From Actinomycetes bacterium (GTDB lineage Bacteria > Actinomycetota > Coriobacteriia > Coriobacteriales > Eggerthellaceae), in assembly GCA_023394615.1 (NCBI GenBank), contig JAEXAI010000022.1, positions 24,175 to 88,174 on the forward strand: a stretch of DNA of 64,000 nucleotides, written 5' to 3'. The position numbers and the translations under genes were made by a program. Every line of letters starts with the position of its first letter. Position 1 is the stretch's first letter. Below, piece by piece: positions 49,823 through 64,000 of the stretch. The notes beneath the pieces were generated by a model. It worked only from the letters and a program-made list of their open reading frames with translations. It did not search any database and was not told the origin of the DNA.

Positions 49823-50281
49823 ATGGAACTGGGCGTGGATCGTCCCTCATGGGACGAGTACTTCATGACACTGGCAGAAGAAGTGGCCACGCGCACCACA
49901 TGCTTGCGGCGCGCTGTTGGTGCTGTGGTGGTGAAAGACCGCCGTATATTAGCCACCGGCTACAACGGTGTTCCGTCTGGACTGCGCCATTGCAGCGAGA
50001 CCGGATGTCTGCGACAAGAGCTGGGTGTGCCCTCAGGTCAGCGCCACGAGATTTGCCGCGGCCTGCATGCTGAACAGAACGCTATTATCCAAGCGGCGCG
50101 CTACGGCATAAACATCGCCGGCGCGAGCATTTATATAACGACGCAGCCATGCGTGGTATGCGCGAAGATGCTCATCAACGCTGGTATCGTGGAGGTAATC
50201 TATCAGAACCCGTATCCCGATGAGCTCGCCCAAGAACTGCTCTCCGAATCCGGCATGAAGATGCGTATCTACGTTTCATAA
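49823..50281 (+). CDS. Deoxycytidylate (dCMP) deaminase, ComEB-like
   Basis: It carries the zinc motifs HAEQNAI and [14 protein letters not shown]. Confidence 0.9.
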
Positions 50282-50342
50282 AACGTGTCAGCAGGACGGG
50301 TCGTTTGACATAAACGTGTCAGCAGGACGGGTCGTTTGACAT
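50281..50342. repeat. Perfect tandem duplication of the 31-bp unit aaacgtgtcagcaggacgggtcgtttgacat
   Basis: Two identical copies are at 50281-50311 and 50312-50342. The unit is the reverse complement of gtcaaacgacccgtcctactgtcagg at 33727-33752 (about 27/31 identical by eye). Confidence 0.85.
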
Positions 50343-50419
50343 ATGCGTGAGCGCTCATGTATCTCAGAAGTAGGTGCATGGGTCTCGACGTCGTGGCATA
50401 GAGGGCGGCGATTCACGTT

Positions 50420-50570
50420 TTGTCAATCAGACCCACTATGTGCGATTTGAGGACGAGCCATTTTCTGACAACTTTTCGCCACCTGCGCAAACGCAGAGCA
50501 TCGTCTTCAGGCATTGCAGAAAAGCCAGTTTTTGCCAGCGATAATCGCACATAGCGGGTCTGATTGACAA
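50420..50570. repeat. MITE-like element or long hairpin: 28-bp inverted repeats separated by 95 bp
   Basis: ttgtcaatcagacccactatgtgcgatt (50420-50447) matches the reverse complement of 50543-50570 (ttgtcaatcagacccgctatgtgcgatt) with 1 mismatch. Confidence 0.5.
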
Positions 50571-50638
50571 TTCCTGTTTTGCGCAGGTTGAATAAGATAG
50601 CTGGGGAGGAACGACTGCGGTCGAGGCGGGGGCGCGTA

Positions 50639-52525
50639 CTAAAGATAGTCCAGCATCTCGCTCGGTTCGATGATGCTTGTGCGTACACCATCTCGTAGGA
50701 TGATACGCGCCACATGCAGGTTCAAACGCTCGGCGGTTTCCAGCCCGCAGCTGGTGAATCCAGAAAATATGATTTGTTTGCGCGCGCTTGCTAAGCACGA
50801 GCGCATTGCCTGACGGTTCGCGGCATCTTCGCGCTTGCGCTTTTCTCCCACGAGCACTCCAGTGTCGCAATGCTCGCGCGAAGGAATGAAACCATTCACG
50901 AAACCGCCGAATATCACCAGGTCGGCCTCGCATCCGAGCAGGTCTTGGGGAGAAGACATCAAAACGTTTGGTCCGCCAGCAGATGATGTTGCGCGGTCGC
51001 GATTGGCAGGGTAGTGCGCATTGTTGTCGAGGTCCTGCGCCTCAGCTAGGCGATGGCTCTCTGCAGCCTCGCAGTGACGTTGCACGTTGGCTGCGGCAGA
51101 CAAACCCCGTATGTATGCATCTTTCAACGGTGCTAGAAGCACATCTGCTGCATCTGCTCCATCGAGTGAACCTCTAGATAGCCGCTTCAACGCTTCGGCG
51201 AGTTGCAGGTCTTGGGAAAGGGCCCTATCGCGCAGCTGCGCAATCGATGCGCTTGCGCCTAGGGCATCACCAAAGGCGCACCATGTGCGCCATGCTGCGG
51301 AATCATCCTCGTTGGCTGCGATGCGCGAAACGATTCTCTGCGCAATCGGGGAAGACAAATCGACAGTACTGTAATCCAGACGGCTGTGCTTTTTGCCAAG
51401 GAACGTAACCGGTATGTCGCAGGTTCCAAGGGCGCGTGCCACATTCGATCGCCAGACAGCGTTCATTCCCACTATCAGGATGTCGTTGACATCAGATTCG
51501 CCGTCTTTGATTTGTGTCACTGTTTCGCAAATCCAGCGGCATTCTTCAACTAAATCAGATGCCATATGGACTTGAATCGACTCGCTTTTATCGTCGGTAG
51601 CGGCAGTAAGGTCGGTGTTTGCTGCATTTTCGTCTTGGACTGGGGTAGTGAAACCCGCGCTCTCGGCGCTTTCGTCCGCCAGCAAGTTTTCAATAACGGA
51701 AACGATATGCGCAGGTCTGTGGCAGCAATCAAGATGCTGCGTCTGCGCGTGCGGATTCGCCGCGAAGAAATCGTCTAGTCCCTCCCGATAGGGATACTGG
51801 TCCTCGGCTGTGGCTGAAGAAGATTCATCGGCGGCAATGGCGATTGATTTATCAGCCAGCAGATTCGCTATTGCTTGTGATGCGCGTCCAATCAACAGAT
51901 AGTCATCGACGATAACATGCGCTCGAGCATGCCGCTGCCGCAGCTGGGTGTCGTTTTCCAGAGCGCGTGAAGCGAGATTATGCAGTTGTTCTGCGACGAT
52001 GCTTCCCGTAAAACACAGATTCTTGCGTAACAGCTCTATGCAAGCCTCTTCCTCCGTCGTTTTGATCCAATCGGGATCATCATCGGCTCTGTCGTTGAAT
52101 CCCCGATAGATGAAGGCCAGAAGCTCGCGAAGGCGCCGCCGCTTTATGCCTAAAGGCTTCATGTCCTCGAAGAGCAAGTCGCTTTCAAGGGAATCAAGCA
52201 GATGCGGTTTGCGGCCATCATGGGCATACGTAGCGGGGTCGGACATAATCTCCCACGCAACTTCGCGCGCTGTCATCACTTGAATCAGATTGGTTCGCGA
52301 AACTGTTTCGTTGCCCTTGCCGGATTCCTCCAAGTTGCGAGCGATCATGTTTTGCATATGCTCTGCCATGGCCGGGGACGCGCATAGTACCAAGACCTGT
52401 TCGTCCTTTTGTGCCAAAAGGCAAGGTCGGCGGGCCAAAGCAGTTGATTTGCCTGTTGCCGGCCCTCCTGTGAAGCAGATTGCATTCGGCGTTGTTGGGA
52501 TGATGTCGGTCATAGTGCGGTTCAC
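50639..52525 (-). CDS. Divergent UvrD/PcrA-like superfamily-1 helicase-like P-loop protein with degenerate motifs
   Basis: It carries Walker A FTGGPATGKST. HVIVDDYLL stands where DEYQD is expected, and IAIAADESS where VGDxxQSIY is expected. The C-terminal ADLVIFGGFVNGFIPS and RQAMRSCLASARKQIIFSGF resemble helicase motifs V and VI. The start is ambiguous (GTG 52525 or ATG 52513). Confidence 0.55.
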   Translation of the reverse strand: MNRTMTDIIPTTPNAICFTGGPATGKSTALARRPCLLAQKDEQVLVLCASPAMAEHMQNMIARNLEESGKGNETVSRTNLIQVMTAREVAWEIMSDPATYAHDGRKPHLLDSLESDLLFEDMKPLGIKRRRLRELLAFIYRGFNDRADDDPDWIKTTEEEACIELLRKNLCFTGSIVAEQLHNLASRALENDTQLRQRHARAHVIVDDYLLIGRASQAIANLLADKSIAIAADESSSATAEDQYPYREGLDDFFAANPHAQTQHLDCCHRPAHIVSVIENLLADESAESAGFTTPVQDENAANTDLTAATDDKSESIQVHMASDLVEECRWICETVTQIKDGESDVNDILIVGMNAVWRSNVARALGTCDIPVTFLGKKHSRLDYSTVDLSSPIAQRIVSRIAANEDDSAAWRTWCAFGDALGASASIAQLRDRALSQDLQLAEALKRLSRGSLDGADAADVLLAPLKDAYIRGLSAAANVQRHCEAAESHRLAEAQDLDNNAHYPANRDRATSSAGGPNVLMSSPQDLLGCEADLVIFGGFVNGFIPSREHCDTGVLVGEKRKREDAANRQAMRSCLASARKQIIFSGFTSCGLETAERLNLHVARIILRDGVRTSIIEPSEMLDYL

Positions 52526-52577
52526 CAGCTTCAGTTGGTCGGTTTAATCTTGCAGCTACGCGTGTCCAATCCAAACG

Positions 52578-52621
52578 GTTTCATGCACTCTAGAACCACA
52601 TGGTTGGAGAGTGCATGAAAC
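52578..52621. repeat. Long palindromic hairpin or operator candidate
   Basis: gtttcatgcactct-ag-aacca-ca-tggtt-gg-agagtgcatgaaac has 14-bp perfect outer arms plus a 5-bp inner stem. It lies about 55 nt upstream of the helicase-like gene start. Confidence 0.6.
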
Positions 52622-52648
52622 TTGGAGAGGTGAATCGGTTGCGCATCT

Positions 52649-52708
52649 GAGGATGCCCTGCGACCCCTGGGACAAACAAAGGGGGAATTGGGGCTCGAGG
52701 GCATCCTC
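52649..52708. repeat. Inverted repeat (11-bp arms gaggatgccct / agggcatcctc)
   Basis: Read directly. The 38-nt loop contains a nested cccct/agggg pairing. Confidence 0.5.
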
Positions 52709-52780
52709 TCTTCGAAGCGCTCGGCAACGTATCGATGCGATACTCCATGTGACATCGAGCGCGTCGAGGAGAGGATCTCT

Positions 52781-52823
52781 GGAGGGCAAACTGCACACGT
52801 GTGATGTCTGCAGTTTACCCTCC
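52781..52823 (-). terminator. Candidate intrinsic (U-tract-less) terminator hairpin after the NapH-like gene
   Basis: ggagggcaaactgca-13 nt-tgcagtttaccctcc has 15-bp arms with 1 mismatch and begins 7 nt downstream of the stop at 52830. There is no U-run, so its function is uncertain. Confidence 0.4.
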
Positions 52824-52829
52824 GCATTT

Positions 52830-53879
52830 CTACTGGTCTGACTCTGCGTGCGGTATCGAATCCGTACTGTTCGACGACGCCTGCACTTCTGCGCTTGTGC
52901 TCACGTTTGCGGATTCCATGTTGGGTTTGCCCGATGCGCTGGAATCCTTTGACTTCGCCAGAAACGGCATCGTGATTGCATCGCCTGGGCACGATTCCAC
53001 GCATTTGCGGCATTTGGTGCATTCGCTCCAAGAGGCGCCGAGGTCGGGGTGGCGCGGATTGATTGCGACTTCGCACACCTGATTGCAACGTCCGCAGGAA
53101 ACGCCGCGTGAAGTTTCCAAGCATGCGTTGTCATCGATGGTGGGACGAAACGTTTTGTTTGCTTTGCCAATCAGGCTCATCAGAGATGAAAGCGGACAGA
53201 TGTGCGAGCACCATTTGCGGAAGAACACGACCTCTATCAGCAACAATGCGGGAATTGCCACAACAGACCACGTCACATCGCCGCTGCCGAACAACAATAT
53301 CAGCACGAACACGAAGGCGAACGACAATCCGATTGGGCAGATAAGGCAGAATACCGGAAAACCGAAGATGGCAGCGGAGAGCAAAGCTCCGCCCAGCACG
53401 ATATGGCGTGAATCAGCAGGCCTCTCCGCATGGCAGGTGCGACACGATGATTTAAGTGCCTTGGCTTCAGCCTCACTTAAAGGCTCAGTGATTTTCGCGG
53501 TGCCCGCCTCTTCCTTGGTTGCAGCAGCTGGCTGCGAATCAGAGGCTTCCGCGTCAATACCATCCGTGCCCTTTTTGTCATCTTGCCGTTTTAGCAAGCC
53601 GCGCAGTTTGCTCCATACGGGCACAGGGCAGATCCACCCGCAGAACGCACGGCCAAGGATAACGATAGCCACAACGCCTACGGCCAGCGATATCAGCGCG
53701 CGTGGAACCATGGTTTTGCTGGCTAGCATCGTTCCGAGTGCGCCTAGTGGGCACAGAATAGATATGTCTTCCCAGCCTATGGCTGAAAGCGTGCCGATTT
53801 CGGCGTGTGCGGCGAATCCGATACCGGCGATAAGCAGTATCGCCAAAGGAATCAGGACTCGAAGCTTGTTGGTTTTCAT
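52830..53879 (-). CDS. NapH-like membrane-bound polyferredoxin (quinol dehydrogenase membrane subunit type)
   Basis: It has four TMs with two CxxxCP motifs (GRAFCGWICP, FRKWCSHICP) and a C-terminal 2x[4Fe-4S] domain (CGRCNQVCEV..., CTKCRKCVESCP). The ATG at 53879 follows an AGGAGG Shine-Dalgarno sequence. The longer ORF to 54005 overlaps the upstream gene. Confidence 0.75.
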   Translation of the reverse strand: MKTNKLRVLIPLAILLIAGIGFAAHAEIGTLSAIGWEDISILCPLGALGTMLASKTMVPRALISLAVGVVAIVILGRAFCGWICPVPVWSKLRGLLKRQDDKKGTDGIDAEASDSQPAAATKEEAGTAKITEPLSEAEAKALKSSCRTCHAERPADSRHIVLGGALLSAAIFGFPVFCLICPIGLSFAFVFVLILLFGSGDVTWSVVAIPALLLIEVVFFRKWCSHICPLSSLMSLIGKANKTFRPTIDDNACLETSRGVSCGRCNQVCEVAINPRHPDLGASWSECTKCRKCVESCPGDAITMPFLAKSKDSSASGKPNMESANVSTSAEVQASSNSTDSIPHAESDQ

Positions 53880-53893
53880 CGATACACCGCCTC

Positions 53894-54532
53894 CTAGGCT
53901 TCTTCTTCGGGAATGACGATGATGGCACGAGTGGTTGCACCGACGGCGATAGATCCTTCTTGTAGGGATACGCAGGCATTCTGGCAAGCACCGCATCCCG
54001 TACATGCGCTGGATATCACGTAGGGATGCTTGTTCTCATCCATCTCGATGGCCTTGTAGGGGCAAGCATCGAAGCAGAATTTGCATCCATTCGCTTTGCT
54101 CCAAGCCAAACACCAATTCTGATTGATGACAGCTTTGCCTACAACGGTGTTTTCAGCGGTTGCTCCAAGGGGGAGTTGCAAGGCTTCAGTGGGACAGAAT
54201 TTCACGCAGCGAGGAACGCCGTTGTTGGCTTCCGTGCAAAAATCGCACCAACCGACATCGTAATCAACGGTAGGTGTTCGCACGCCCAGTACGCCGTTTT
54301 CCAAATGGGCGGGCGCAAGCGCGCCATTTGGACACGCTTCGATGCATCTTTCGCATCGGATGCAAGCTGAGACCAGATGCTCTTCGTCTTGCCCGCCCGG
54401 CGGCCTGACCCGCGCCTGGGCAGGGACCACTTTCAATCCCCCCATGGCAAGCAGCGCTGCGGCACCGCCTGCGCCCATCGCGAATGTGCGTCGCGACATG
54501 CCGGCGATCGACCCCTTCCTCTTCTCTTCCAT
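53894..54532 (-). CDS. NapG-like Tat-exported 4x[4Fe-4S] ferredoxin
   Basis: The twin-arginine signal is MSRRTFAMGAGGAAALLAMG. Four Cys clusters are present (CIRCERCIEACP, CDFCTE...CVKFCP, CKFCFDACP, CTGCGACQNAC). Confidence 0.8.
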   Translation of the reverse strand: MEEKRKGSIAGMSRRTFAMGAGGAAALLAMGGLKVVPAQARVRPPGGQDEEHLVSACIRCERCIEACPNGALAPAHLENGVLGVRTPTVDYDVGWCDFCTEANNGVPRCVKFCPTEALQLPLGATAENTVVGKAVINQNWCLAWSKANGCKFCFDACPYKAIEMDENKHPYVISSACTGCGACQNACVSLQEGSIAVGATTRAIIVIPEEEA

Positions 54533-54554
54533 GCTATCTCCCTTGTTCGTCTAT

Positions 54555-55295
54555 TTATTCGGAAAGCATATTGTCCAGAAGCTCTTTGTCGTTACTCAAA
54601 AGCCCGTCAGTCAAATATGCCAGCCCTCGATAGAAATCAGTGCGCGCGAATTTCTTCATTTCAACGGTCATCATGGGGACCCAACCCATCAGATGATCGT
54701 CGAGGAAGTTCTGCTGACTGCGTACGAGCGCAACAGCCTCATCCTCATCGCCTGCATCCAATGCAGAGGCGCTGCGATTCGCCAAGATCTGCATGTATTC
54801 CAGCTCAAGCGCGATATGGTCCTCGCCCTCTTTCCAGCTTTCCTGTTTTTCTAGGCCAGCAGCGCGGTACAGGGCCAGCACTTCATCGCGTGCGCCCTGC
54901 ATCAGCAGGCGTTTCTCGCTGGTGTACACGCTCTCGAATGGGTAGGCTGCCGCATGGCCGTTGTATCCATGTCCGAAAAAGACGCGCATGTAGTCGGCGG
55001 CCAGTTCGATGGGCGTATTCTCCCAGATTCCGCAGAGATACGTGGCGATGAGCCGATAGCCCTCGTCCACATCTTCGTTTCCGCTTGATACGCGATAGTG
55101 CATGGCATGCAGCTCTTCCAGCAACGCCATATCTATCTCTTCGCGATAGAGGCGCGAGAGGAAGCCGTAGTTCGCGGCACGTTGTTTGAAAACTTCCACC
55201 AATTCCAAATCGGTTGTCGTCTTGTCGGCTATGCTTGCAGCTTCCTTGGACGCAGCAGCCGTTGTTTTTTCTTCCACGCAGGCGTTCGAAGTCAT
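54555..55295 (-). CDS. TorD/DmsD-family redox enzyme maturation chaperone
   Basis: RAANYGFLSRLY..., YPFESVYTSEKRLLMQ, EDHIALELEYMQIL, FLDDHLMGWVP and FYRGLAYLTDGLL match the conserved blocks of the Nitrate_red_del/TorD family. The ATG at 55295 follows an AAAGGAGAA Shine-Dalgarno sequence. Confidence 0.85.
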   Translation of the reverse strand: MTSNACVEEKTTAAASKEAASIADKTTTDLELVEVFKQRAANYGFLSRLYREEIDMALLEELHAMHYRVSSGNEDVDEGYRLIATYLCGIWENTPIELAADYMRVFFGHGYNGHAAAYPFESVYTSEKRLLMQGARDEVLALYRAAGLEKQESWKEGEDHIALELEYMQILANRSASALDAGDEDEAVALVRSQQNFLDDHLMGWVPMMTVEMKKFARTDFYRGLAYLTDGLLSNDKELLDNMLSE

Positions 55296-55308
55296 TTGCT
55301 TCTCCTTT

Positions 55309-56232
55309 CTACCAGTTGATGCCGTCAGTCTCGGTGGGCATAGCCCGCAGAGGCACGGCATCGGCTGGGGGTTCGTAGTCGTCGATTACGTCGCTGAGCA
55401 GCTCCAAAGCCCGCTCGCCCATATCGGTTATCGTCCACGCTTGCGCATTCCATACCAAGGCGTCGCAGCGCTCTAGAGCCTCCACGAAATGCTGCACGTA
55501 AAAGCGACGCGGGGTGCTGATCAGGGGGTTTCCGTCCACCTGCACGCTTAATTCGTCCATTTCGACGCCGTCGGTGGCCTTTGCGGTTGTAAGCACGCGT
55601 TTATAAATGGGCAAAAGGTCGGTTTCGCTTTCAAAAAGCTCTTGGAGACGCTCGTCAGGGTTGTCTTCTACTGCTGCGTTTGCGCCTGCTTCTGTTGCCA
55701 GCCAGTGCACCTTTTCAGGCGTCGTGGGTACGTAGTATTCTTCGCCGTCCTCAATTACGATGTCGGGCTTCGATGCGTGCAGCGCATAGGGCTCGCCATC
55801 TGCAGTCACGCGGTTGATGGCTCCGGCGATTTCCAACATGGTGCATAGGTTCGACGGCGTGTACACCGAGAACTTTTTCTGCTGCAAGTTTTCCGTGACT
55901 TTGTGTACGTCATCCATGGAAAGGGGCTCATGTGCGGCGTTGATAATGCCCAAAAGCACGGTGCGCTGGGGGCGCATCTGGGAAAACAGCTCGCGCGTAC
56001 GCTCGATTGCCGGGCGTTTCGCATACTCCGCGCTGTCCTGTTTCACGGCATTCTCGATAACGGGAACCTTGTCTGGGTCGGGCGCTAAAAATTCGGTGCG
56101 TCCTTCGGTATTGGTCAGGAATAGTTCCGACTGGTCTGGTTCTGACTGCGGCATCGCCATCGCGTTGCCTGTCGGGTCCATGGAGAGATCGAATGAGAAG
56201 TCGAATCCTCCCAATGATGTTCTATCGGCCAT
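55309..56232 (-). CDS. Hypothetical protein (two winged-helix-like segments; no recognised family)
   Basis: 307-aa ORF with an AGAGGA Shine-Dalgarno sequence. Its gaps to the flanking operon genes are 19 bp (to the upstream gene) and 13 bp (to the downstream gene). Coding is inferred from its length and operon context. Confidence 0.5.
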   Translation of the reverse strand: MADRTSLGGFDFSFDLSMDPTGNAMAMPQSEPDQSELFLTNTEGRTEFLAPDPDKVPVIENAVKQDSAEYAKRPAIERTRELFSQMRPQRTVLLGIINAAHEPLSMDDVHKVTENLQQKKFSVYTPSNLCTMLEIAGAINRVTADGEPYALHASKPDIVIEDGEEYYVPTTPEKVHWLATEAGANAAVEDNPDERLQELFESETDLLPIYKRVLTTAKATDGVEMDELSVQVDGNPLISTPRRFYVQHFVEALERCDALVWNAQAWTITDMGERALELLSDVIDDYEPPADAVPLRAMPTETDGINW

Positions 56233-56251
56233 TGTGTCCTCTTTTCGGTCG

Positions 56252-57175
56252 TTAGTTCAGGTTGTACTCGCGCAGCAGAGTCTGTCCGCCCACAGTGGAT
56301 GGTCGCAGCCCTTGCGATTCGCCAAGGAAAACCGTTGGGGTTGTCATGGCCAATCGCTCACCGCGCCGCATCTTGTAACGTGCGATGCGGATATGCGCAT
56401 TTTTAGCAGTATCTGCATTGATCTGGGTGAATCCGGAAATGACCGCGCGTATGCGCGCATGTTCTGAAATGCGCTCAAAATTCGCGCGGCAGATATCGAG
56501 AGCGTTTTGGCGGTCTTTGGCCACAGGGGCCTCGAACGCTGCTGGGCCGGGGATGAGCCCGTTCACGCAACCGATTGCAAGTATCCAATCGAAGGTCTCT
56601 TCGATGGAGTCATAGCATAAAATAGGAGTGATATCTCTGTTGGCGGGCAGCGTGGGGCAGCGAAGTTGCTGCCCTATGATTTCTGCCAACGTTGTTGCAT
56701 CCTCGTCGCCGCATATATGCTGTAGCGCACAGGCGAACTCGGACATGTGCCTCAAATCCAAGAGGCGTATGAGCGTGAAGGCTCGAGCTGTGCGGTATGT
56801 ATCGATGAAATGCTGCGCCTCGTGTTGCTCGATGCCCAGTTGGCTGCGCAACATGACGACGCCTTCATCGCCTTTGGCAGCTAAAGCAGCAAGCTTCGTG
56901 CAGGCTGTTTGTGCTTGTTGGTCAAAACGATTTGCAGCGATACAGGCAATGGTGTTTACGTTAGCCTGCATACAAGCTTTCTGCATTTGCCCAGCCCATG
57001 TTCTGTTCGGAGCGACGATGCATATATTCTTTGCCGCTGTGCCATGTTCGAGCAAGCCAGATACCAGTGCGGCCATGCCCAGCAGCTCTTCTGCCGGAGT
57101 CTTCCATTTCACGCACAGCATCTGTGTGCTCGCCTGGGGTTGCACCGTTGCTTGTTCTGTTGCCTGGTCGTTCAT
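56252..57175 (-). CDS. Hypothetical protein paralogous to the C-terminal (helicase 2A-like) half of the 50639-52525 product; no P-loop
   Basis: Blocks are shared with the 628-aa protein: NICIVAPNRTWAGQMQKA / DILIVGMNAVWRSNVARA, FDWILAIGCVNGLIPG / ADLVIFGGFVNGFIPS, and RIRAVISGFTQ / RKQIIFSGFTS. No clear Shine-Dalgarno sequence is present, so the start is uncertain. Confidence 0.5.
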   Translation of the reverse strand: MNDQATEQATVQPQASTQMLCVKWKTPAEELLGMAALVSGLLEHGTAAKNICIVAPNRTWAGQMQKACMQANVNTIACIAANRFDQQAQTACTKLAALAAKGDEGVVMLRSQLGIEQHEAQHFIDTYRTARAFTLIRLLDLRHMSEFACALQHICGDEDATTLAEIIGQQLRCPTLPANRDITPILCYDSIEETFDWILAIGCVNGLIPGPAAFEAPVAKDRQNALDICRANFERISEHARIRAVISGFTQINADTAKNAHIRIARYKMRRGERLAMTTPTVFLGESQGLRPSTVGGQTLLREYNLN

Positions 57176-57191
57176 CGTGTTATGCCAGTAG

Positions 57192-58109
57192 CTACGCGAC
57201 GAAAGTGCGTGTCGTCGAGTCGAAAATGCGCTTCGTGCCGTCGGCGAACGTCACTTCCCACAAGGAATAATCGACATCAAAATCGAAGCGCTCTTCCTCT
57301 TCTTCCTCTTCTGTTGCATCCTGCGCCTCATCGACGGGTGGCAGCGTGCTGGAATCGGTCGGGGCCACGGCGGTATTCTCGTAGCTTTTCGCTTCGGTGT
57401 CTTCTCTCATGCGCCGCTCGCGAGTTTCTTCATCTTCCGAGCCAATGGGCTTCACGCTCGTGTGCTTGCGTTGAGCGACTGATTCGCTTTGCGCGGAATC
57501 CTCCTCGTCGGCAAGCGATTCGGGTGTTGCGTTCGATTCGATTGCCTCAGGATGCTCTTTTACCCACTTTGTCCATGCATCTGCTCGCTGCTCTTCGAAA
57601 CTTGCTGCTGTGGGCATGTCCACGCGTATGGCGTCGGTAAGCGTGCCGTCATTCAAAAGATTACGGGCCACAGTCGCGTTTGCATGTGCGCTCGGGTCAA
57701 CGAGGCAAAGCGCATCTGGGTGGATGCCGATTATGAATTGGCTAGATTGCAGTTCCACATCCATACTGTCGAAAACCAGTTCAGGCAACCCGATGCTGCG
57801 CTGACGATCGTTGAAGACCTTCATATTGTTTCCCACGCGGCGAAACAGATTCGCCAGCCATGGGTCTATGATATCGGTCCATTTCTCGTCGGCGCCTTCG
57901 TCGGCAGACATGAGGAACCGGTAGGCTCCCATGTTTACCAGGCAACGCATGACGTTGCGCGCAGGTTCGTCCGACTGCGCGGCGTGCGTCCTTATCACGG
58001 GCGTGCCGATGTGCGCATAGTTGCGTTTCACTTCCAAGATAGTGTCCTCTTGTGCGCAGCGCTCGTCTAAGTCGAGCACCAGCGTCAGGGAAGGTCGAAG
58101 CATTGTCAT
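57192..58109 (-). CDS. Hypothetical protein (possible PD-(D/E)XK-like motif at the N-terminus; strongly acidic C-terminal region)
   Basis: This is the first gene of the six-gene operon. The ATG at 58109 follows a GGGGGA Shine-Dalgarno sequence (the ORF extends to 58166). LTLVLDLD-x10-EVK is present near the N-terminus, and the C-terminal stretch is ...DEAQDATEEEEEEERFDFDVDY. Confidence 0.5.
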   Translation of the reverse strand: MTMLRPSLTLVLDLDERCAQEDTILEVKRNYAHIGTPVIRTHAAQSDEPARNVMRCLVNMGAYRFLMSADEGADEKWTDIIDPWLANLFRRVGNNMKVFNDRQRSIGLPELVFDSMDVELQSSQFIIGIHPDALCLVDPSAHANATVARNLLNDGTLTDAIRVDMPTAASFEEQRADAWTKWVKEHPEAIESNATPESLADEEDSAQSESVAQRKHTSVKPIGSEDEETRERRMREDTEAKSYENTAVAPTDSSTLPPVDEAQDATEEEEEEERFDFDVDYSLWEVTFADGTKRIFDSTTRTFVA

Positions 58110-58265
58110 AGATCCCCCATTCGTCTTGCTTCTCATCCAACGAGGCGAGTATAGGAAACCTTTCATAAGTCAAATAATAGAGCCTCTATGATTTGGCGTA
58201 TGAATCGGGCAGTATGATAGGTCCTACATCAAGCATCTGGGCAGGTCACGCGCAGATGCTGATAA

Positions 58266-59492
58266 ATGAGCGAAACTATTGGGAAGAAGAAGGTAGCCGC
58301 CATGCCCAGCATTTCTAACATGATCGGACTCATCTCAAAACTTGACGGAGCGTACGTGACGGTGCATCAGGAACGTTGCGTGCTGGTGCGCAACCGCAAC
58401 AGCGATTGTCTGCGTTGCGCCCAAGTATGCACATCAGGATGCATCAGCTACGACAACGAGCAACTGACTATCGATCCGAGCAATTGCATCGGGTGCGGCA
58501 CGTGCGCCAGCAATTGTCCCACATGCGCGCTCGAGGCTCATTTTCCAAATGATGCCGAACTGATGGCACGCTGCACGAAAGCGGCACAAGCAGGAGAGCG
58601 CAAAGTGTGTATCGCATGCGGCAGTCTGCTGGATTGCGTGGGAGATGCATGCGATCCCGATGCCGTCGTGCGTGTGGAATGTCTGGGTCGTGTAGAAGAA
58701 TCCCTCCTGACGGCCCTTGCCTCAAACGGCGTATCCCAGGTGATACTGGTGCATGGCAGCTGTGGCGACTGTGATCATGCGACGGGACGGGAGATGGTTG
58801 AGCGCGTGATTGATACGCAGGAACAGTTGATGGATGCATGGAATTGCTCTATGACAGTGCGTTTAGCTGCGAAATTTCCTGCATATACACACGCTGCAGA
58901 AGACAAGAGGGGCAAACGCAAGCGCAATGATCTACAGCAAAGCGGCAATGAGGCACTTCGCATGGGTGCGACCACAGCCGAGTTTGCCGTATCAAACGCG
59001 CTCGGAAGCAACCAGCAAGATCAAAAGCGTGAACCCGTCGTCATGAAAGTGATGGAAGACGGCACCCTCCCGCATTTTCTGCCCGACCGGCGCGAGCGTT
59101 TGCTGGATGCATTGGCCGGGTTGGGGCAGCCGCAAGATGTGATGATTGATACTCGTTTGTGGGGCCACGTGATCATCGACACCGATACATGCTCATCATG
59201 TCTGATGTGTTCGACCTTCTGCCCGACCGGCGCGCTCAGCAGATTCAAGGAAGCAGATGGCACGTTTGGAGTAGAGCATTATCCGGGTGATTGCGTGAAA
59301 TGCCGTTGTTGCGAGAATATCTGTCCAGAGGGCGCCATCAGTATTTCCGAAGAGGTTTTTGCTGTGGACATGTTGGCCGGTATGGTGGAGCGCTATCCGA
59401 TGGCGCCCGTGGCTGTACAGCGTAGGGCTGCTCATACCATCTGGCATATGGCCGAAGATATGATGCTGACTGACCAGGTGTTTGAACGCTGA
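58266..59492 (+). CDS. Cytoplasmic multi-cluster 4Fe-4S ferredoxin-domain protein (polyferredoxin)
   Basis: No signal peptide is present. The N-terminal clusters are CLRCAQVCTSGC / CIGCGTCASNCP. A central Cys-rich segment reads CIACGSLLDC...CGDCDH. The C-terminal clusters are CSSCLMCSTFCP / CVKCRCCENICP. Confidence 0.75.
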   Translation: MSETIGKKKVAAMPSISNMIGLISKLDGAYVTVHQERCVLVRNRNSDCLRCAQVCTSGCISYDNEQLTIDPSNCIGCGTCASNCPTCALEAHFPNDAELMARCTKAAQAGERKVCIACGSLLDCVGDACDPDAVVRVECLGRVEESLLTALASNGVSQVILVHGSCGDCDHATGREMVERVIDTQEQLMDAWNCSMTVRLAAKFPAYTHAAEDKRGKRKRNDLQQSGNEALRMGATTAEFAVSNALGSNQQDQKREPVVMKVMEDGTLPHFLPDRRERLLDALAGLGQPQDVMIDTRLWGHVIIDTDTCSSCLMCSTFCPTGALSRFKEADGTFGVEHYPGDCVKCRCCENICPEGAISISEEVFAVDMLAGMVERYPMAPVAVQRRAAHTIWHMAEDMMLTDQVFER

Positions 59493-59519
59493 TAGACGCT
59501 CGCAGATCAAGCAGGTGCT

Positions 59520-59595
59520 CCAACCACAAGCGCCCACCCCAAGCGCCCAACCACAAGCGCCCAACCGCAAGCGCCCAACCGCAAGCGCCCAACTC
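59520..59595. repeat. 14-bp tandem repeat CCAACCRCAAGCGC, about 5.5 copies
   Basis: Units lie at 59520, 59534 (a 13-bp variant), 59547, 59561 and 59575, with a partial unit at 59589. An inverted partial copy (ggcgcagttggttgtgttgg) follows at about 59607-59626. The array sits between convergent genes. Confidence 0.85.
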
Positions 59596-59647
59596 TCAAT
59601 GGGTGGGCGCAGTTGGTTGTGTTGGATTCCCGCGCAACAGCTGTGGT

Positions 59648-61408
59648 CTAATCGTCTAATTCGACGCTTTCCACCAAATCGATCAGCTCGCTTTGCGAAT
59701 GCACATCCAATTTGCGGTAGATATGGCGCATGTGGGTGTTGGCCGTGCCTTCTGAAATGAAGAGGTTTTCCTGAATGGCGGTGGAACTGCGTCCTTTCGC
59801 CAACAAGAACAGCACTTCTGTCTCGCGCCGTGAAAGCAGATAGCGGTCAGCGATAACGGCGCACTTGCGTTTGAACCAACCGGTGCGTCGTATGGGCTCT
59901 TGGTCGTTTGCGGCTGCTGGGGGTTGGGCTTGGGCCATCATGGCGGCTTTTGCGTCAGATACGGGTTGCCTGTGGCCAGATGTGCCCATCTCCTTTGATG
60001 CCTGTCGGGCTGCATCTGTTTTTCCTCGTGCTGTACCACCGTCGGCGCTAGAGCGGTTCGCACTATGATTATCGACTGTGCCTGCAGATGGCGAAGGGTT
60101 TGCAGGAGCGGGCTCATCTGACATATCAAGTTCGTCAAGCGTTTCGCTGAGGCCCTTCGCAGATTCTCTGCTCTCGGTTTTTTCCTCCGTGTTTTCCAGC
60201 ACGTCGAGTCGATAGTCTTCGGGGGTCAACGGGGTGGGGGCGATGCTTCCTCGCTTCAGCACGCCGCGCATCTCGTGGTTGGTGGGCAAAAGCGCCACTC
60301 CCAGCGTGCAACATGCGAACATGATTGCGATGAACATGGCGGTGTTGGGGCGCGTGCCTGCAACAGGACCCAGATAAGCGGCACATTGGTAACCGATAAG
60401 CGTGCCTAGCGCCAGCGCGCATCGTCCGAAGCCGAACACGGTGAACGGGCTGATGCGGAAGCGCTCTGATATGTCGGAGTGCATAATCCACATACAGGTC
60501 TCGACGATAAGATACGTGGCAATCAGGCAGAACAGCGATGCCTCGGAGCCTTCGATGCCGGGAATCGCCAAGAATGCCACAAGCAGTGCCGCCACCGGCA
60601 TAAGCGTTCGGAACGCGAAGTTGTTCGCATGATGCTGCGTAATCAGGGCTCCTACCACGGCAAGGAATACAAAGGCGGCTGCTGCCAGTATCATCGGAGA
60701 GAGAGCCTCTAAAAACTCGCTGCCGTCCGGCAGCAGAACCGTGTAAGCGCGCAGCAGACCGATTGGGATGCCGAACACGAAACTGGGTGCGAAGATATGC
60801 AGGGCGAAAGGTGCCGAGCGCACGGGGATGGTAATGGATTTGAATTCCAGCTTGTCAACCAAGTTGGCAGAGCATTTTTTCAAGCAGACCAGCTGTAAAA
60901 ACGGCAAAGTCATGCACACGACGGTACCTGCGGGAGACCAAAACGAGTTCAACAGCATGATGCCGACGAAGAAGAGCGCCCCGAGCGGAATCGACACTGC
61001 AGTGCATATGGTTACCGTGGGCAGGTCGCATACGCTGAAGGACACGCCATAACTCATAAGCAGCACGGCTGCACCAAAGCCTATTAACGCACCCGCAACC
61101 GCGGTGATGACGAATGCTGCCTCGGATGCGCCGCTCACAAGCAGGCTCAGCAGCATCCCGCCAAACGCGCTTGTGGCAGCGATCATGCGATTCCTGCTGC
61201 GTTTTTTCGGCGTGGCGAAAAGCGCGCGCGTCGGCTCGATGAAAAGCGCATAGGGAAGCAGCGTCAAGATGAAGAACACGGTTGAAGACACGAGCAGGGT
61301 ATTGCTCTCAACGCTTACGGCAGGGAAGAACAAATGCGAGCTATTCATTCCCGCGCAGAACAGCCAGGCCCAATACAGGGCGAAGCCGATTATAAGACTG
61401 GCGGACAC
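59648..61408 (-). CDS. LuxR-family transcriptional regulator with a polytopic N-terminal membrane (sensor) domain
   Basis: The C-terminal HTH is LSRRETEVLFLLAKGRSSTAIQENLFISEGTANTHMRHIYRKLDV. The N-terminal ~380 aa are predicted to form about 10 TM helices, followed by a ~130-aa low-complexity linker. Confidence 0.85.
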   Translation of the reverse strand: MSASLIIGFALYWAWLFCAGMNSSHLFFPAVSVESNTLLVSSTVFFILTLLPYALFIEPTRALFATPKKRSRNRMIAATSAFGGMLLSLLVSGASEAAFVITAVAGALIGFGAAVLLMSYGVSFSVCDLPTVTICTAVSIPLGALFFVGIMLLNSFWSPAGTVVCMTLPFLQLVCLKKCSANLVDKLEFKSITIPVRSAPFALHIFAPSFVFGIPIGLLRAYTVLLPDGSEFLEALSPMILAAAAFVFLAVVGALITQHHANNFAFRTLMPVAALLVAFLAIPGIEGSEASLFCLIATYLIVETCMWIMHSDISERFRISPFTVFGFGRCALALGTLIGYQCAAYLGPVAGTRPNTAMFIAIMFACCTLGVALLPTNHEMRGVLKRGSIAPTPLTPEDYRLDVLENTEEKTESRESAKGLSETLDELDMSDEPAPANPSPSAGTVDNHSANRSSADGGTARGKTDAARQASKEMGTSGHRQPVSDAKAAMMAQAQPPAAANDQEPIRRTGWFKRKCAVIADRYLLSRRETEVLFLLAKGRSSTAIQENLFISEGTANTHMRHIYRKLDVHSQSELIDLVESVELDD

Positions 61409-61771
61409 TTTGCCTAGCGCATAGGATTTTTCTTCACGGTACTCGATGGTAATGTATGGCAGTTTCAGCAGTCGGCCCCCCTTGGCTCGTCCAGCGATAG
61501 GAATATATCATATTATGAGGTTTCACGTGCGCAAACAAGCGCGAATCATACGCTGGCTATGAACCCCTATCAGCTCTCATAAGCAAAATAATAAATCTGC
61601 TATGAAGGGTGCGAGGCGCCTCGTTCGTACAATTGCCCCACCGCGTTGGAGTGTCATGAAACCAGGGGGAACGGCTCAATCGGAGTCGGCTGGGACGAAG
61701 GACACATGCCTTATCGACGAGGACGAGACAGGTAGAGAGAACAGAGAGAAGAAGAGAAAGGTGGGGAATCT

Positions 61772-64000
61772 ATGGCACAGCTAACCATGTCGCGTCGCAA
61801 CTTCATGAAGACGATGGCGGTTACTGGGACGGCTGCGGCAATCGGTTCTTCGGCGATAAGTCCCATGCAGGCTCTTGCCGAAACCGATACGCCCAAGGCG
61901 GGAGAAGTGACGCATGTTCGCACGTGCTGTCGAGCTTGTGGCAAAGTGGAATGCGGCGTCTGGGTGACCGTACAGGATGGCAAGGCCATCAAGGTCGAAG
62001 GCGACGAGTCCGCTCCGCAGAGTCGAGGACATTGCTGCGCGAAAAGCCAGTCATCCATGCAAGCGGCGTATCACCCCGATCGTCTGCGCTACCCTGTGAA
62101 GCGCACGAATCCGAAAGGGTCGGATGACCCCGGTTGGGTGCGCATCACGTTGCCCGAGGCTTTCGAGCTGACCGGTCAAGGAATGGGCGAGGTCGTCGAC
62201 AAATACGGCGGGCAGTCCATTTTCGTGATGTGCGGCACGTCGCGCGTATGGTCGCTTGGTCCCTATCAGGGCATGAAGCAGCTGTTCGGCACCCCGAACG
62301 CGCATCTGGCCTATCAGGTCTGCAAGGGTCCGCGCCACTGGGCCGGCATCATGACTGACGAGATGGGCTCTCCCTGGATGGAAGTCGAAGCAGAGCCGAA
62401 AGTGTATCTGCAGTGGGGCACCGCAGTCGAGTATTCCAACTATGACACCACCAACCGCACCATTTCCGACGTTGCGCCGCATGCGAAATACCATATCGAT
62501 GTGGATCCGCGCGTCACGCCGCTGGGTAAGGAAGCCGATATCTGGCTGCCGCTGCGTCCCGGTACTGACGGTGCGATGGCACTGGGTTGGTTCAACTGGA
62601 TTATTGAGAACGAGGCCTACGATGACACGATGGTGCGTCGTTGGTCGAATGCAACGTTTTTGTATTGTGATGAGAAGCCGTGGTATACCGAAGGTTGGCT
62701 GGTCGAGGGCAATGGCGGCGTGGATATGCGCTCCAAGCTCATTACCGAAGCTGACATCAAAGAAGGCGGCAAACACCAGCGCTTCATGGTGTGGGACGAG
62801 AACAACAACCGTCTGACTTATTGGGACGCTGAAGAGGGCAAGTGGGAAGGCGAGACCCATAAGGTTCCCACGACCGGATCATTTATCAAGCACCCGCTGA
62901 CCGGTTTGGTGGGCGACGCTTGGCTGCCCGACGAATCCGTCTGGTGCGACCCAGGCGATGCTACGTTTGACAAGTACTGGGATTCGGGCAACGAGAAGGG
63001 CGCTACCAGCAATCCAGCCGGTCTGCCCAAAAAGCCCGCGTTGTTCCCCGGTGAGGTTCCCGTTACGCTGAAAGATGGCAAATCGTACAAGTGCCGCACC
63101 GTGTGGGATGGTTTTCATGATCTAACCAGCGAATATGACTGGGACAAGGTTGAAGAGATCACCGGCGTTTCCGGCAAAAAGTGCGAAGAGGCCGTGAAAA
63201 TCTGGACCACGCGCATCGACGCGCGCCATGGCAATGGCGGCATCCATTTCCAGCTGGCAACCGACCAGAACGGCAATTCCATCCAGAACTGCCGCGTGCT
63301 GCAGATGCTCAGCTGCGTTACCGGCAACTCCGACGAACCCGCAGGCAACCGCGGGTCCAGCAAGAGCCAGTTCGACGGCAATCCCGGCCGTTCCAACATG
63401 CAGGCCGCAAGCGCCTATGGCGATTCTGCCAAAACGTGGACCGGGCGTGACTACAGCTTGGATGAATTGGCCAAGTACATGCAGGATTTCGTGCAGTACC
63501 TGATCGATGAAAAGTCTCCTTTGGCTGAACGCTACGGCAACAAAGTACCCTCAGACGACGAAGCCATCATTATCGCCAAACGCATGGGTGGCGCCATGAG
63601 GCAGTCTCAGTACTGGCCCAACCCCAAGACCATCTTCACCCGCAATGCAGGCGAGATCGATGCAGACCGCTTCCCGCTGGATCGCTACTGGGCACGTTGG
63701 GTGGACGCAAACGCCACGTGGGACGGCTGCTTGCAAGATCCTAACTGGTCGCTAGCCATGAAAAACGACAACAAGGAAGTCGGCTACAACGTCAAGGAAA
63801 CGCCCTATGCGCTCCATGGCGGCTTGTGTCAGTCGGGCGACCTGATGAACATGGCCAACATCGCACGCGCATGGGATGCCATGACGCAACTTGACTTCTT
63901 TGTGGACATTAATCTGTGGTTCTGCCCCAACAATGGCAATGCCGATGTGATTTTCCCGTGCCAGCACTGGATGGAGCTTGACTCCACCCGCGTGTCTCAA
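61772..64000 (+). CDS. Tat-exported molybdopterin (bis-MGD, DMSO-reductase superfamily) oxidoreductase catalytic subunit, 3' end outside the window
   Basis: The frame is open from the ATG at 61772 to the window end (743 codons) and is not in the ORF track because it has no stop. The twin-arginine signal is MSRRNFMKTMAVTGTAAAIG. The N-terminal Fe-S motif is CCRACGKVECGVWV...GHCCAKS, and DRLRYPVKR and LPLRPGTDGAM blocks are typical of the family. An AAAGGTGGGG Shine-Dalgarno sequence is present. Confidence 0.85.
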   Translation, partial: MAQLTMSRRNFMKTMAVTGTAAAIGSSAISPMQALAETDTPKAGEVTHVRTCCRACGKVECGVWVTVQDGKAIKVEGDESAPQSRGHCCAKSQSSMQAAYHPDRLRYPVKRTNPKGSDDPGWVRITLPEAFELTGQGMGEVVDKYGGQSIFVMCGTSRVWSLGPYQGMKQLFGTPNAHLAYQVCKGPRHWAGIMTDEMGSPWMEVEAEPKVYLQWGTAVEYSNYDTTNRTISDVAPHAKYHIDVDPRVTPLGKEADIWLPLRPGTDGAMALGWFNWIIENEAYDDTMVRRWSNATFLYCDEKPWYTEGWLVEGNGGVDMRSKLITEADIKEGGKHQRFMVWDENNNRLTYWDAEEGKWEGETHKVPTTGSFIKHPLTGLVGDAWLPDESVWCDPGDATFDKYWDSGNEKGATSNPAGLPKKPALFPGEVPVTLKDGKSYKCRTVWDGFHDLTSEYDWDKVEEITGVSGKKCEEAVKIWTTRIDARHGNGGIHFQLATDQNGNSIQNCRVLQMLSCVTGNSDEPAGNRGSSKSQFDGNPGRSNMQAASAYGDSAKTWTGRDYSLDELAKYMQDFVQYLIDEKSPLAERYGNKVPSDDEAIIIAKRMGGAMRQSQYWPNPKTIFTRNAGEIDADRFPLDRYWARWVDANATWDGCLQDPNWSLAMKNDNKEVGYNVKETPYALHGGLCQSGDLMNMANIARAWDAMTQLDFFVDINLWFCPNNGNADVIFPCQHWMELDSTRVSQ

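Follow-up and report, generated by a model that had tools for sequence, protein, structure and literature searches.

A TorD/NapG/NapH-type operon with UvrD-like partners as the probable accessory operon of a Tat-exported molybdoenzyme in an Eggerthellaceae bacterium

The window analysed here, a stretch of 64,000 nucleotides from an Actinomycetes bacterium of the Eggerthellaceae (assembly GCA_023394615.1, contig JAEXAI010000022.1, positions 24,175 to 88,174), contains six close-set minus-strand genes, A to F. They encode three proteins of no recognised family (A, B and C), a TorD-type chaperone (D), a NapG-like ferredoxin (E) and a NapH-like membrane protein (F), and are followed by a gene for a UvrD-like protein, G. 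Sequence comparison and analogy with a published system indicate that A to F are very probably the accessory operon of the adjoining molybdoenzyme, which carries a signal for twin-arginine translocation (Tat), and that they contribute both to its biogenesis and to its electron supply, the locus being a variant of dadh-type clusters such as those of Eggerthella lenta. This assignment is favoured because published genetics, direct homology, a conserved gene block and a gene content that stays constant in shuffled order all point to it; chaperone genes in or beside the clusters and the operon structure (gaps of 13–22 bp, no internal signals and a hairpin) are further reasons. The locus is a compositionally variant dadh-type molybdoenzyme cluster with two components, A and B, that have not been described previously.

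Homology with the dadh accessory genes of Eggerthella lenta

The accessory genes adjoining dadh, which encodes dopamine dehydroxylase, have been characterised in E. lenta (Elen_0475–0482; PMC11887054, J Am Chem Soc 2025, 147:7231). The genes dadhD to dadhI are co-induced with dadh by dopamine and encode a helicase-domain protein (DadhD, Elen_0475), a hypothetical protein (DadhE) directly upstream of the TorD-like DadhF, the NapG- and NapH-like ferredoxins DadhG and DadhH, and a further Fe-S ferredoxin, DadhI (PMC11887054). The full accessory set is needed for active Dadh in Gordonibacter urolithinfaciens, and plasmid deletion of dadhD, E, F, G or H each abolished dopamine dehydroxylation, while DadhI was dispensable (PMC11887054). 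Among the constructs tested, the Dadh protein itself was lost only in the dadR and dadhD deletions (PMC11887054). In AlphaFold3 models, DadhE and DadhF are docked on the catalytic subunit, with DadhF contacting the signal peptide, and DadhG/H on DadhB/C (PMC11887054). The hcdh and cadh clusters hold similar accessory sets; that of the five-enzyme cadh cluster is shared and constitutively expressed, and the Cadh set is unable to replace the Dadh set (PMC11887054).

The sequence-only reading of the window had stated that it knew of no described nap, dms, ttr, phs or defence locus in which helicase-like or winged-helix-like proteins are joined to a quinol-dehydrogenase cassette. The dadh, hcdh and cadh clusters, described in 2025, contradict the claim that such a combination is undescribed (PMC11887054). 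Its proposal of an undescribed system fails for the system as a whole, as G, C, D, E, F and the neighbouring ferredoxin are homologues of DadhD to DadhI, and survives for A and B, which lie outside the published set. One of the alternatives that it had raised, new maturation partners for exported molybdoenzymes, is supported by both the comparative genomics and the published genetics (PMC11887054).

For a direct comparison, metagenome contigs were scanned with the 24-nt start of dadhF taken from the published primer table (PMC11887054), which yielded 18 human-gut contigs. One of them, L048, bears seven of the published primer sequences in the expected order, fixing the identity of each open reading frame (ORF). 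On the dadh contigs, the DadhD ORF (L048:704-2566, plus strand) matches the profile of G with an E-value of 1e-86, and the DadhE ORF matches that of C with an E-value of 7e-39 (profile positions 53-281; 31% identity). The DadhF ORF matches the TorD profile of D (1e-90; 56.5% identity), DadhG the NapG-like profile of E (1e-76; 51.7% identity) and DadhH the NapH-like profile of F (8e-87; 39% identity), while the DadhI ORF, which follows DadhH, matches the polyferredoxin profile (6.5e-113; 40% identity). Overall, the accessory proteins of the window share 25% to 57% identity with their dadh counterparts.

Through their dadh members, the D/DadhF and C/DadhE families have been shown to be needed for active enzyme after the protein has been made, and the E/DadhG and F/DadhH families to be needed for activity; for the G/DadhD family, deletion abolished detectable catalytic-subunit protein. 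By analogy, the window proteins would act at the same stages. In the mechanism that we propose, D would bind the apo-enzyme and its twin-arginine signal peptide while the cofactor is inserted, and D and C would form a chaperone unit for cofactor insertion and Tat targeting. C may be the fixed partner of D, because the pair of a C gene followed by a TorD gene is invariant. E, at the outer surface of the membrane, and F, embedded in it with clusters on the cytoplasmic side, would pass electrons to the DmsB-like subunit of the enzyme, with either menaquinol or the cytoplasmic polyferredoxin as a possible electron source.

The family assignments of D, E and F, already made by the sequence-only reading, are confirmed by Pfam and NCBIfam matches and by motifs. 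D belongs to the TorD family (Pfam Nitrate_red_del, PF02613; E-value 3e-34, 118.3 bits versus a gathering cut-off of 22.2). E matches the NapG/MauM models of NCBIfam at 3e-25 (88.9 bits versus an equivalog cut-off of 269) and contains an SRRTF twin-arginine motif and four cysteine clusters, corresponding to [4Fe-4S] motifs. F matches NapH/MauN at 7e-23 (81.4 bits versus an equivalog cut-off of 213) as well as Fer4_5, and combines membrane helices with the CX3CP motifs CGWICP and CSHICP and two C-terminal [4Fe-4S] motifs. By these sequence criteria, E and F are NapG/NapH-like proteins and not NapGH proper.

Operon structure, neighbouring genes and conservation

All six genes are encoded on the minus strand: A at 57192–58109 (305 aa; the first gene of the operon, with a longest ORF starting at 58166), B at 56252–57175 (307 aa), C at 55309–56232 (307 aa), D at 54555–55295 (246 aa), E at 53894–54532 (212 aa) and F at 52830–53879 (349 aa). 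The ORF list and the sequence both give intergenic gaps of 16, 19, 13, 22 and 14 bp, and in these coordinates and gaps the sequence-only reading was exact. It was also right that five of the six starts carry a Shine-Dalgarno sequence: purine-rich, Shine-Dalgarno-like motifs precede A (GGGGGA), C (AAGAGGA), D (AAAGGAGA), E (AAGGGAGA) and F (TAGGAGG), and none is present in the inspected sequence upstream of B. Translation of B may start at 57175 or, according to the gene caller used on the parent contig, 18 codons later, which would give a protein of 289 aa. For A, the start at 58109 is favoured by the alignment with its homologues (MTMLRPS... versus MALLRPS...).

A consensus scan of A to F detected no internal promoter or terminator above chance, with fewer sites than in shuffled sequence; the C/D junction contained none. 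A stem-loop on the minus strand (52781–52823) starts 6 nt past the stop codon of F and contains 15 + 2 paired bases. Its folding energy of -34 kcal/mol (z = -5.78) is not reached by any of 200 shuffled sequences, and since it lacks a T-run it was not listed by the consensus terminator scan. It probably marks the end of the A–F transcript, as a terminator without a U tract, or serves as a stabilising element. This strong hairpin is located at the upstream end of the 304-bp spacer between F and G (52526–52829), in which no sigma-70-like site was found; G may have a promoter of its own within this spacer. An Rfam search of positions 50000–62000 gave no match.

The catalytic subunit of the adjoining molybdoenzyme is encoded on the plus strand (61772–64000). 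The window contains the first 743 of its 1171 aa, and the gene continues beyond the window on the parent contig, L001 (L001:946-4461, minus strand). Pfam detects TAT_signal, Molybdop_Fe4S4, Molybdopterin and Molydop_binding domains in the complete protein, and the catalytic gene is followed on the parent contig, outside the window, by genes for a 220-aa Fer4_11 protein that matches the DmsB family (1e-40) and for a DmsC-like protein of 292 aa. The enzyme is classified from its sequence as a Tat-exported, DmsABC-type enzyme with a bis-molybdopterin guanine dinucleotide (bis-MGD) cofactor, and is provisionally placed with the catechol dehydroxylases. In tblastn, it shares 42.5% (N-terminal half) and 36% (C-terminal half) identity with the Dadh ORF on contig L051, and the alignment shows a gap at about residues 555-625. 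Between the accessory operon and the enzyme gene lie a divergently oriented gene for a cytoplasmic polyferredoxin (58266–59492, plus strand; Pfam Fer4 and an MvhD/FlpD-like FlpD domain), the homologue of DadhI, and a gene for a membrane-bound LuxR-type regulator (59648–61186, minus strand; GerE, 1.8e-16) of the same type as DadR. A LuxR-type regulator is encoded in nearly all related loci, in varying position and orientation.

Scanning one genome per species of the Genome Taxonomy Database (GTDB) with the alignment of C as query identified 31 window-type loci, all of Eggerthellaceae type, which belong to Adlercreutzia, Enterorhabdus, Slackia, Senegalimassilia, Denitrobacterium and Curtanaerobium, plus some mislabelled bins. 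The gene order is the same in every sufficiently long locus: [DmsC<-DmsB<-Moly], LuxR in variable position, [<-ferredoxin], [A B C TorD NapG NapH G]. G is the last gene of the block in all loci that reach it, and the genes beyond G vary by genus. The sequence-only reading had asked whether the six-gene order is conserved and always near a Tat molybdoenzyme, and in 31 species it is found beside one. Identity to the window proteins in these loci amounts to 75–89% for the molybdoenzyme, 52–77% for TorD, NapG and NapH, 43–59% for C, 41–53% for A and about 29–43% for B and G. The enzyme is thus far more conserved across the 31 species than the accessory proteins A, B, C and G (75–89% versus 29–59%).

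Nine more divergent loci were reached through protein A alone, by way of distant members of its family encoded on their contigs. All nine are molybdoenzyme accessory clusters that contain the same protein families in shuffled order, with molybdoenzymes of 989–1288 aa; the exception is L062, which is accessory-only. Examples are [Fdx<-G-like<-TorD<-C-like] / [A->Moly->DmsB->DmsC->DUF6273->NapG->NapH], [NapH<-NapG<-DmsC<-DmsB<-Moly] / [A->G-like] and C-like->TorD->A->X->Moly->DmsB->FKBP->LuxR, and the accessory-only layout is C-like->TorD->Fdx->G-like->A->G-like. The C gene directly precedes the TorD gene in every locus that shows both, and A directly precedes a UvrD-like gene at four of the nine divergent loci, as it precedes B in the window. 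The constancy of the gene content while the order changes is strong evidence that the accessory set is a functional unit.

This constancy also bears on a second proposal of the sequence-only reading, a DNA-directed module captured or split by a redox cassette. In this case, A, B, C and G would constitute a helicase-nuclease repair system, a defence system or the remnant of a mobile element, located beside an unrelated redox cassette or inserted into it. The resemblance of G and B to UvrD agrees with such an origin, as do very weak matches of A to Prim-Pol (Pfam, E-value 0.039) and to a Cas4-type PD-(D/E)xK model (PADLOC, E-value 0.024). However, the only PADLOC match above this weak level is the P-loop of G (6e-5), no PHROG match is significant, the model of A has no significant Foldseek match, and the Prim-Pol-like DxD...H pattern is not conserved in the wider family of A. 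The block is syntenic and confined to one bacterial family (31 species), and is not patchily distributed as mobile genes are. Its components diverge in step and its helicase motifs are degenerate. When shuffled, the genes recur only together with molybdoenzyme, TorD and NapGH genes; the accessory set is never seen apart from a molybdoenzyme or its TorD chaperone, and homologues are genetically required for a molybdoenzyme (PMC11887054). A DNA-directed or defence module can hence be considered highly improbable.

It could also be argued that D, E and F form an all-purpose unit of quinol dehydrogenase and chaperone, available to many reductases of the cell, and that A, B and C have nothing to do with them and are lineage-specific genes on the same transcript by chance. 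Eggerthellaceae encode many reductases, and the five enzymes of the cadh cluster do share one constitutive accessory set (PMC11887054). A comparable arrangement may exist at L062 (L062:14-7101, plus strand), where genes for a C-like protein, TorD, polyferredoxin, a G-like protein, A and a second G-like protein occur on a 14-kb contig that contains no molybdoenzyme gene. Nevertheless, the failure of the Cadh set to support Dadh indicates that the sets are enzyme-specific, and DadhE itself is required (PMC11887054). In addition, the pair of C and TorD genes is invariant, and the operon stays with one highly conserved enzyme in 31 species. A general unit with unrelated passengers is thus very unlikely, and a dedicated accessory operon is the preferred explanation.

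Several chaperone genes occur in or beside the related clusters. An extra 428-aa trigger-factor-like protein (Trigger_N and Trigger_C; L023:5442-6728, minus strand) is encoded between the LuxR and ferredoxin genes and has equivalents on L028, L030, L031 and L033, in some Senegalimassilia/Slackia-type loci; it recalls the PceT protein of reductive dehalogenase clusters (see below). General chaperones are found within distant clusters, namely an HSP90-like protein (L034:12886-14787) and an FKBP_C protein (L036:16139-16579), and GroEL/GroES (L060:18205-20171) are encoded just past the LuxR gene of another. The presence of these genes fits a demanding maturation pathway. In one window-type locus, a MobB-MobA fusion (L004:818-2137, minus strand) is encoded just beyond DmsC; MobB and MobA are involved in molybdopterin guanine dinucleotide synthesis. 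A DUF6273 gene is located between the DmsC and NapG-like genes of two distant clusters (L038:16204-17070 and L039:15611-16492, plus strand), and its product could be a further accessory component.

Protein A, protein C and the degenerate UvrD-like proteins

As the sequence-only reading had noted, A, B and C belong to no established family: none has a significant match in Pfam, NCBIfam, PADLOC or PHROGs, and profile searches of the three against PDB sequences retrieved nothing. The AlphaFold model of A has a mean predicted local distance difference test score (pLDDT) of 84.5, rising to about 95 over residues 1-190, which form a compact alpha/beta domain. It is followed by an acidic, disordered linker (residues ~200-280) that carries a conserved KSYENTAVPPTDS motif, and by a small C-terminal beta-meander (residues 283-304). 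A conserved FDFxVDYxxW motif is noted for the tail of A. Foldseek matched this model to nothing in PDB or BFVD at a significant level; the top hit was a tautomerase-like isomerase with an E-value of 0.015 and TM-scores of 0.16-0.41, depending on whether the length of query or target is used for normalisation.

Searching 1.84 billion representative proteins with a profile of A retrieved 258 representatives of its family at E <= 1e-3. Of thirty members whose source was looked up, the two with an organism name belong to metagenome-assembled genomes of Coriobacteriales and Eggerthellaceae, and none came from E. lenta. Across 81 diverse members, P6, D15, R29, Y31, N52, Y65, W77, W84, N100, R149, P166 and Q174 are conserved, together with W284 and G291 in the tail. 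A DxD...RxH pattern is invariant in close homologues of A only. This conservation, mostly of aromatic and polar residues, and the loss of the DxD...H pattern in the wider family argue for a binding protein rather than an enzyme, as far as can be judged from sequence. A primase-polymerase and a PD-(D/E)xK nuclease, the candidates suggested by the very weak Prim-Pol and Cas4-type matches, were rejected, as D13, R40 and H42 are not conserved among the 81 members and no structure matches. No A-like ORF was found on the dadh-locus contigs that were scanned (L043, L044, L046, L048, L049, L051 and L058), one of which, of 11.3 kb, reaches dadR and extends into dadhA/B.

The AlphaFold model of C (mean pLDDT 80.7) has a disordered N-terminus of 65 residues and two winged-helix domains, in agreement with the winged-helix impression gained from the sequence alone. 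The disordered N-terminus contains a strongly conserved linear motif, FLPNTEGRTEFLPPDPD, and the C-terminus ends in a conserved ...TETDG(V/I)NW; neither this N-terminal motif nor the NW tail of window-type C proteins is matched in DadhE. Foldseek retrieved only generic winged-helix regulators of the PadR/MarR type for C (E >= 0.03). The gene is always located directly upstream of the TorD gene. On contig L040, an ORF on the plus strand (L040:12001-12948) matches the C family at 3.5e-53 where the existing annotation has a 271-aa minus-strand gene, so that this annotation probably has the strand wrong.

G (50639–52525, minus strand; 628 aa), encoded 304 bp downstream of F, is a full-length member of the DadhD family and a degenerate relative of UvrD/PcrA. 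Searches with the single sequence gave weak matches to UvrD_C and AAA_19, while the family profile is homologous to UvrD/PcrA in the PDB across the helicase core, domains 1A-2A (2e-14). Residues 21-68 of G, comprising the P-loop, match a PADLOC NERD+UvrD model at 6e-5, as would be expected of any UvrD-like P-loop. The paralogy of one of the three family-less proteins with half of G, noticed from the sequence alone, is borne out for B: BLASTP aligns it to G with 27% identity over 122 aa (5e-7), and hhalign aligns residues 22-293 of B to residues 308-613 of G with a probability of 99% (3.6e-18). B is a half-length paralogue of G/DadhD that corresponds to the C-terminal (2A/2B-like) half only, as its sequence lacks the entire N-terminal ATPase half and ends in its own conserved tail, RPSTxGGQxLLRxYxLN. 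B exists as a gene of its own in the 31 window-type loci; neither the nine divergent loci nor dadh showed a separate half-length gene of this kind. In the Adlercreutzia-, Curtanaerobium- and Denitrobacterium-type loci (L005, L007, L014, L016 and L018), B is shortened to about 190–225 aa by deletion of about 100 residues of the middle region, which spares the C-terminal half and, at the N-terminus, the VKW...AVPN segment.

No UvrD-like member examined has the motif IV arginine, motif V (HxxKGxE) or motif VI (the TRA arginine finger). G of the window keeps a GxxxxGKS Walker A motif and a DD[YF] Walker-B-like motif II. Across the family, Walker A varies from GK[ST] in some members to GRT in the Senegalimassilia group, and DadhD (L048:704-2566) has no Walker A, showing VEHDASDD where its relatives have GxxxxGK[TS]. 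Conserved residues are found elsewhere, in a GxVNGxxP motif and a C-terminal RxxxxxGxRxxxxxPS motif. Because motifs IV to VI are missing and DadhD lacks the P-loop, G, B and DadhD are probably not translocating helicases.

The authors who described DadhD proposed that it acts on the DNA or mRNA of the locus (PMC11887054). Applied to the window, this would mean that G and B, perhaps with C and A, act on the locus DNA or on the long mRNA, enabling transcription or translation of the catalytic subunit, and not on the protein itself. Such an activity is consistent with the disappearance of Dadh protein upon deletion of dadhD but not of the other accessory genes (PMC11887054), with the homology of the G profile to UvrD/PcrA (2e-14, domains 1A-2A) and the nucleotide-binding motifs kept by G of the window, and with the two winged-helix domains predicted for C, a fold common among DNA-binding proteins. 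Yet a Walker A motif is missing from DadhD, the only family member for which a phenotype is known, and reads GRT instead of GKT in one clade; the arginine of motif IV and motifs V and VI are lost in every member examined, and the residues that are conserved lie elsewhere. DadhE, the C-family member, is modelled on the catalytic subunit and is not needed for its expression (PMC11887054), and the loss of protein could equally result from failed folding or maturation followed by degradation. An action on nucleic acid is accordingly somewhat unlikely, although it retains an appreciable chance.

The mechanism that we propose for the accessory operon places these proteins on the enzyme instead. Since the catalytic motifs of helicases are missing, B and G may be non-translocating scaffolds or nucleotide-binding factors and not DNA helicases. 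A would act together with the UvrD-like proteins B and G, either stabilising the apo-enzyme or promoting its production, because a gene pair of A and a DadhD-like protein recurs and A is followed by B in the window; we propose A as an adaptor working with DadhD-like proteins. A bolder possibility, advanced here tentatively and with less than even expectation, is that A and the degenerate UvrD-like proteins B, G and DadhD together act on the protein itself, as a biogenesis factor of an unrecognised kind for Tat-exported bis-MGD enzymes. The helicase fold would then be reused without ATP-driven translocation as a scaffold or holdase for a very large apo-enzyme, which would be kept stable until TorD and C finish cofactor insertion, with A as the adaptor.

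Several observations are at odds with the assignment of A to F to enzyme biogenesis and electron supply, or weaken parts of it. The loss of Dadh protein upon dadhD deletion also fits a role at the level of DNA or mRNA, as its discoverers propose (PMC11887054), and G of the window keeps the GKS of its Walker A motif. Nothing corresponding to A is encoded in the dadh cluster that was studied by deletion, and the role suggested for B is drawn from paralogy only. The cluster encodes its own DmsC-like anchor, which leaves the need for E and F unexplained. Finally, the clade of the enzyme is assigned from about 40% identity and a shared gene context, and its activity may not be catechol dehydroxylation.

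Significance and comparison with known systems

Molybdoenzymes of gut Eggerthellaceae convert drugs, neurotransmitters and dietary polyphenols, and are hard to produce outside their own hosts. Accessory genes were identified as the missing ingredient for producing such enzymes (PMC11887054), and the published parts list lacks the widespread A family and the half-length UvrD-like B, both of which may be needed in heterologous expression. If A and the UvrD-like proteins do act as a biogenesis factor, this would explain the resistance of these enzymes to standard heterologous hosts. The block of enzyme and accessory genes conserved in Adlercreutzia, Slackia, Senegalimassilia, Denitrobacterium and related genera offers a target for the search for new substrates, and the probable lack of helicase activity in the "helicases" redirects the question of how DadhD controls the enzyme level. 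These findings refine an already described system and do not overturn current understanding.

The presumed role of E and F, electron delivery to an exported molybdoenzyme, corresponds to that of NapG and NapH of Escherichia coli and Wolinella and their relatives MauM/MauN, NosH and NosR. E shares the Tat signal and the four [4Fe-4S] motifs with NapG, and F shares the membrane helices, the CX3CP motifs and the two cytoplasmic [4Fe-4S] motifs with NapH. In contrast to NapGH, E and F score far below the equivalog cut-offs, the locus contains no napA/B/C genes, and the partner enzyme comes with DmsB- and DmsC-like subunits of its own. To our knowledge, classical TorD/DmsD systems have no tandem winged-helix partner, whereas in this lineage a gene for a tandem winged-helix protein (C/DadhE) always directly precedes the chaperone gene. 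Otherwise, D resembles the TorD/DmsD/NarJ chaperones in its match to PF02613, which agrees with the model of DadhF on the signal peptide (PMC11887054).

Among the superfamily 1A helicases (UvrD, PcrA and Rep), G aligns with UvrD and PcrA over the whole core, and B corresponds to the C-terminal half of G. The family differs from these helicases in the absence of the motif IV arginine and of motifs V and VI, in its variable or absent Walker A, in the lack of a nuclease domain and in its genomic partners, which are genes for redox-enzyme maturation and not for DNA repair. G and B can be likened to AddB and RecC, inactivated helicase-like subunits in which the fold is kept and the catalytic motifs are lost.

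The pceABCT clusters of reductive dehalogenases encode PceC, a NapH/NosR-like membrane protein, and PceT, a trigger-factor-like chaperone of the Tat-exported enzyme. They thus resemble the window in that a Tat-exported respiratory enzyme is accompanied by a membrane-bound Fe-S protein similar to NapH and by a folding helper dedicated to it, and some loci of the present family hold a trigger-factor-like gene as well. The enzyme of the pce clusters contains a corrinoid instead of molybdopterin, and UvrD-like, A-like and C-like proteins are not part of them.

The closest known system is the dadh cluster, from which the window differs in several respects. A heads the operon in the window, while the dadh stretches examined contain no A-like ORF; B occupies the position of DadhD, and the full-length G is placed at the end, behind the hairpin. 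The ferredoxin gene is divergent in the window and the last of the operon in dadh, the enzyme of 1171 aa shares no more than about 40% identity with Dadh, and the Walker A motif kept by G is missing from DadhD. Both clusters are nevertheless composed of the same families (G/DadhD, C/DadhE, D/DadhF, E/DadhG, F/DadhH and ferredoxin/DadhI) and share the core order of UvrD-like protein, hypothetical protein, TorD, NapG-like and NapH-like protein. In both, the genes for a Tat-exported bis-MGD enzyme with DmsB- and DmsC-like subunits are transcribed away from the accessory genes, and a LuxR-type regulator is encoded in the interval.

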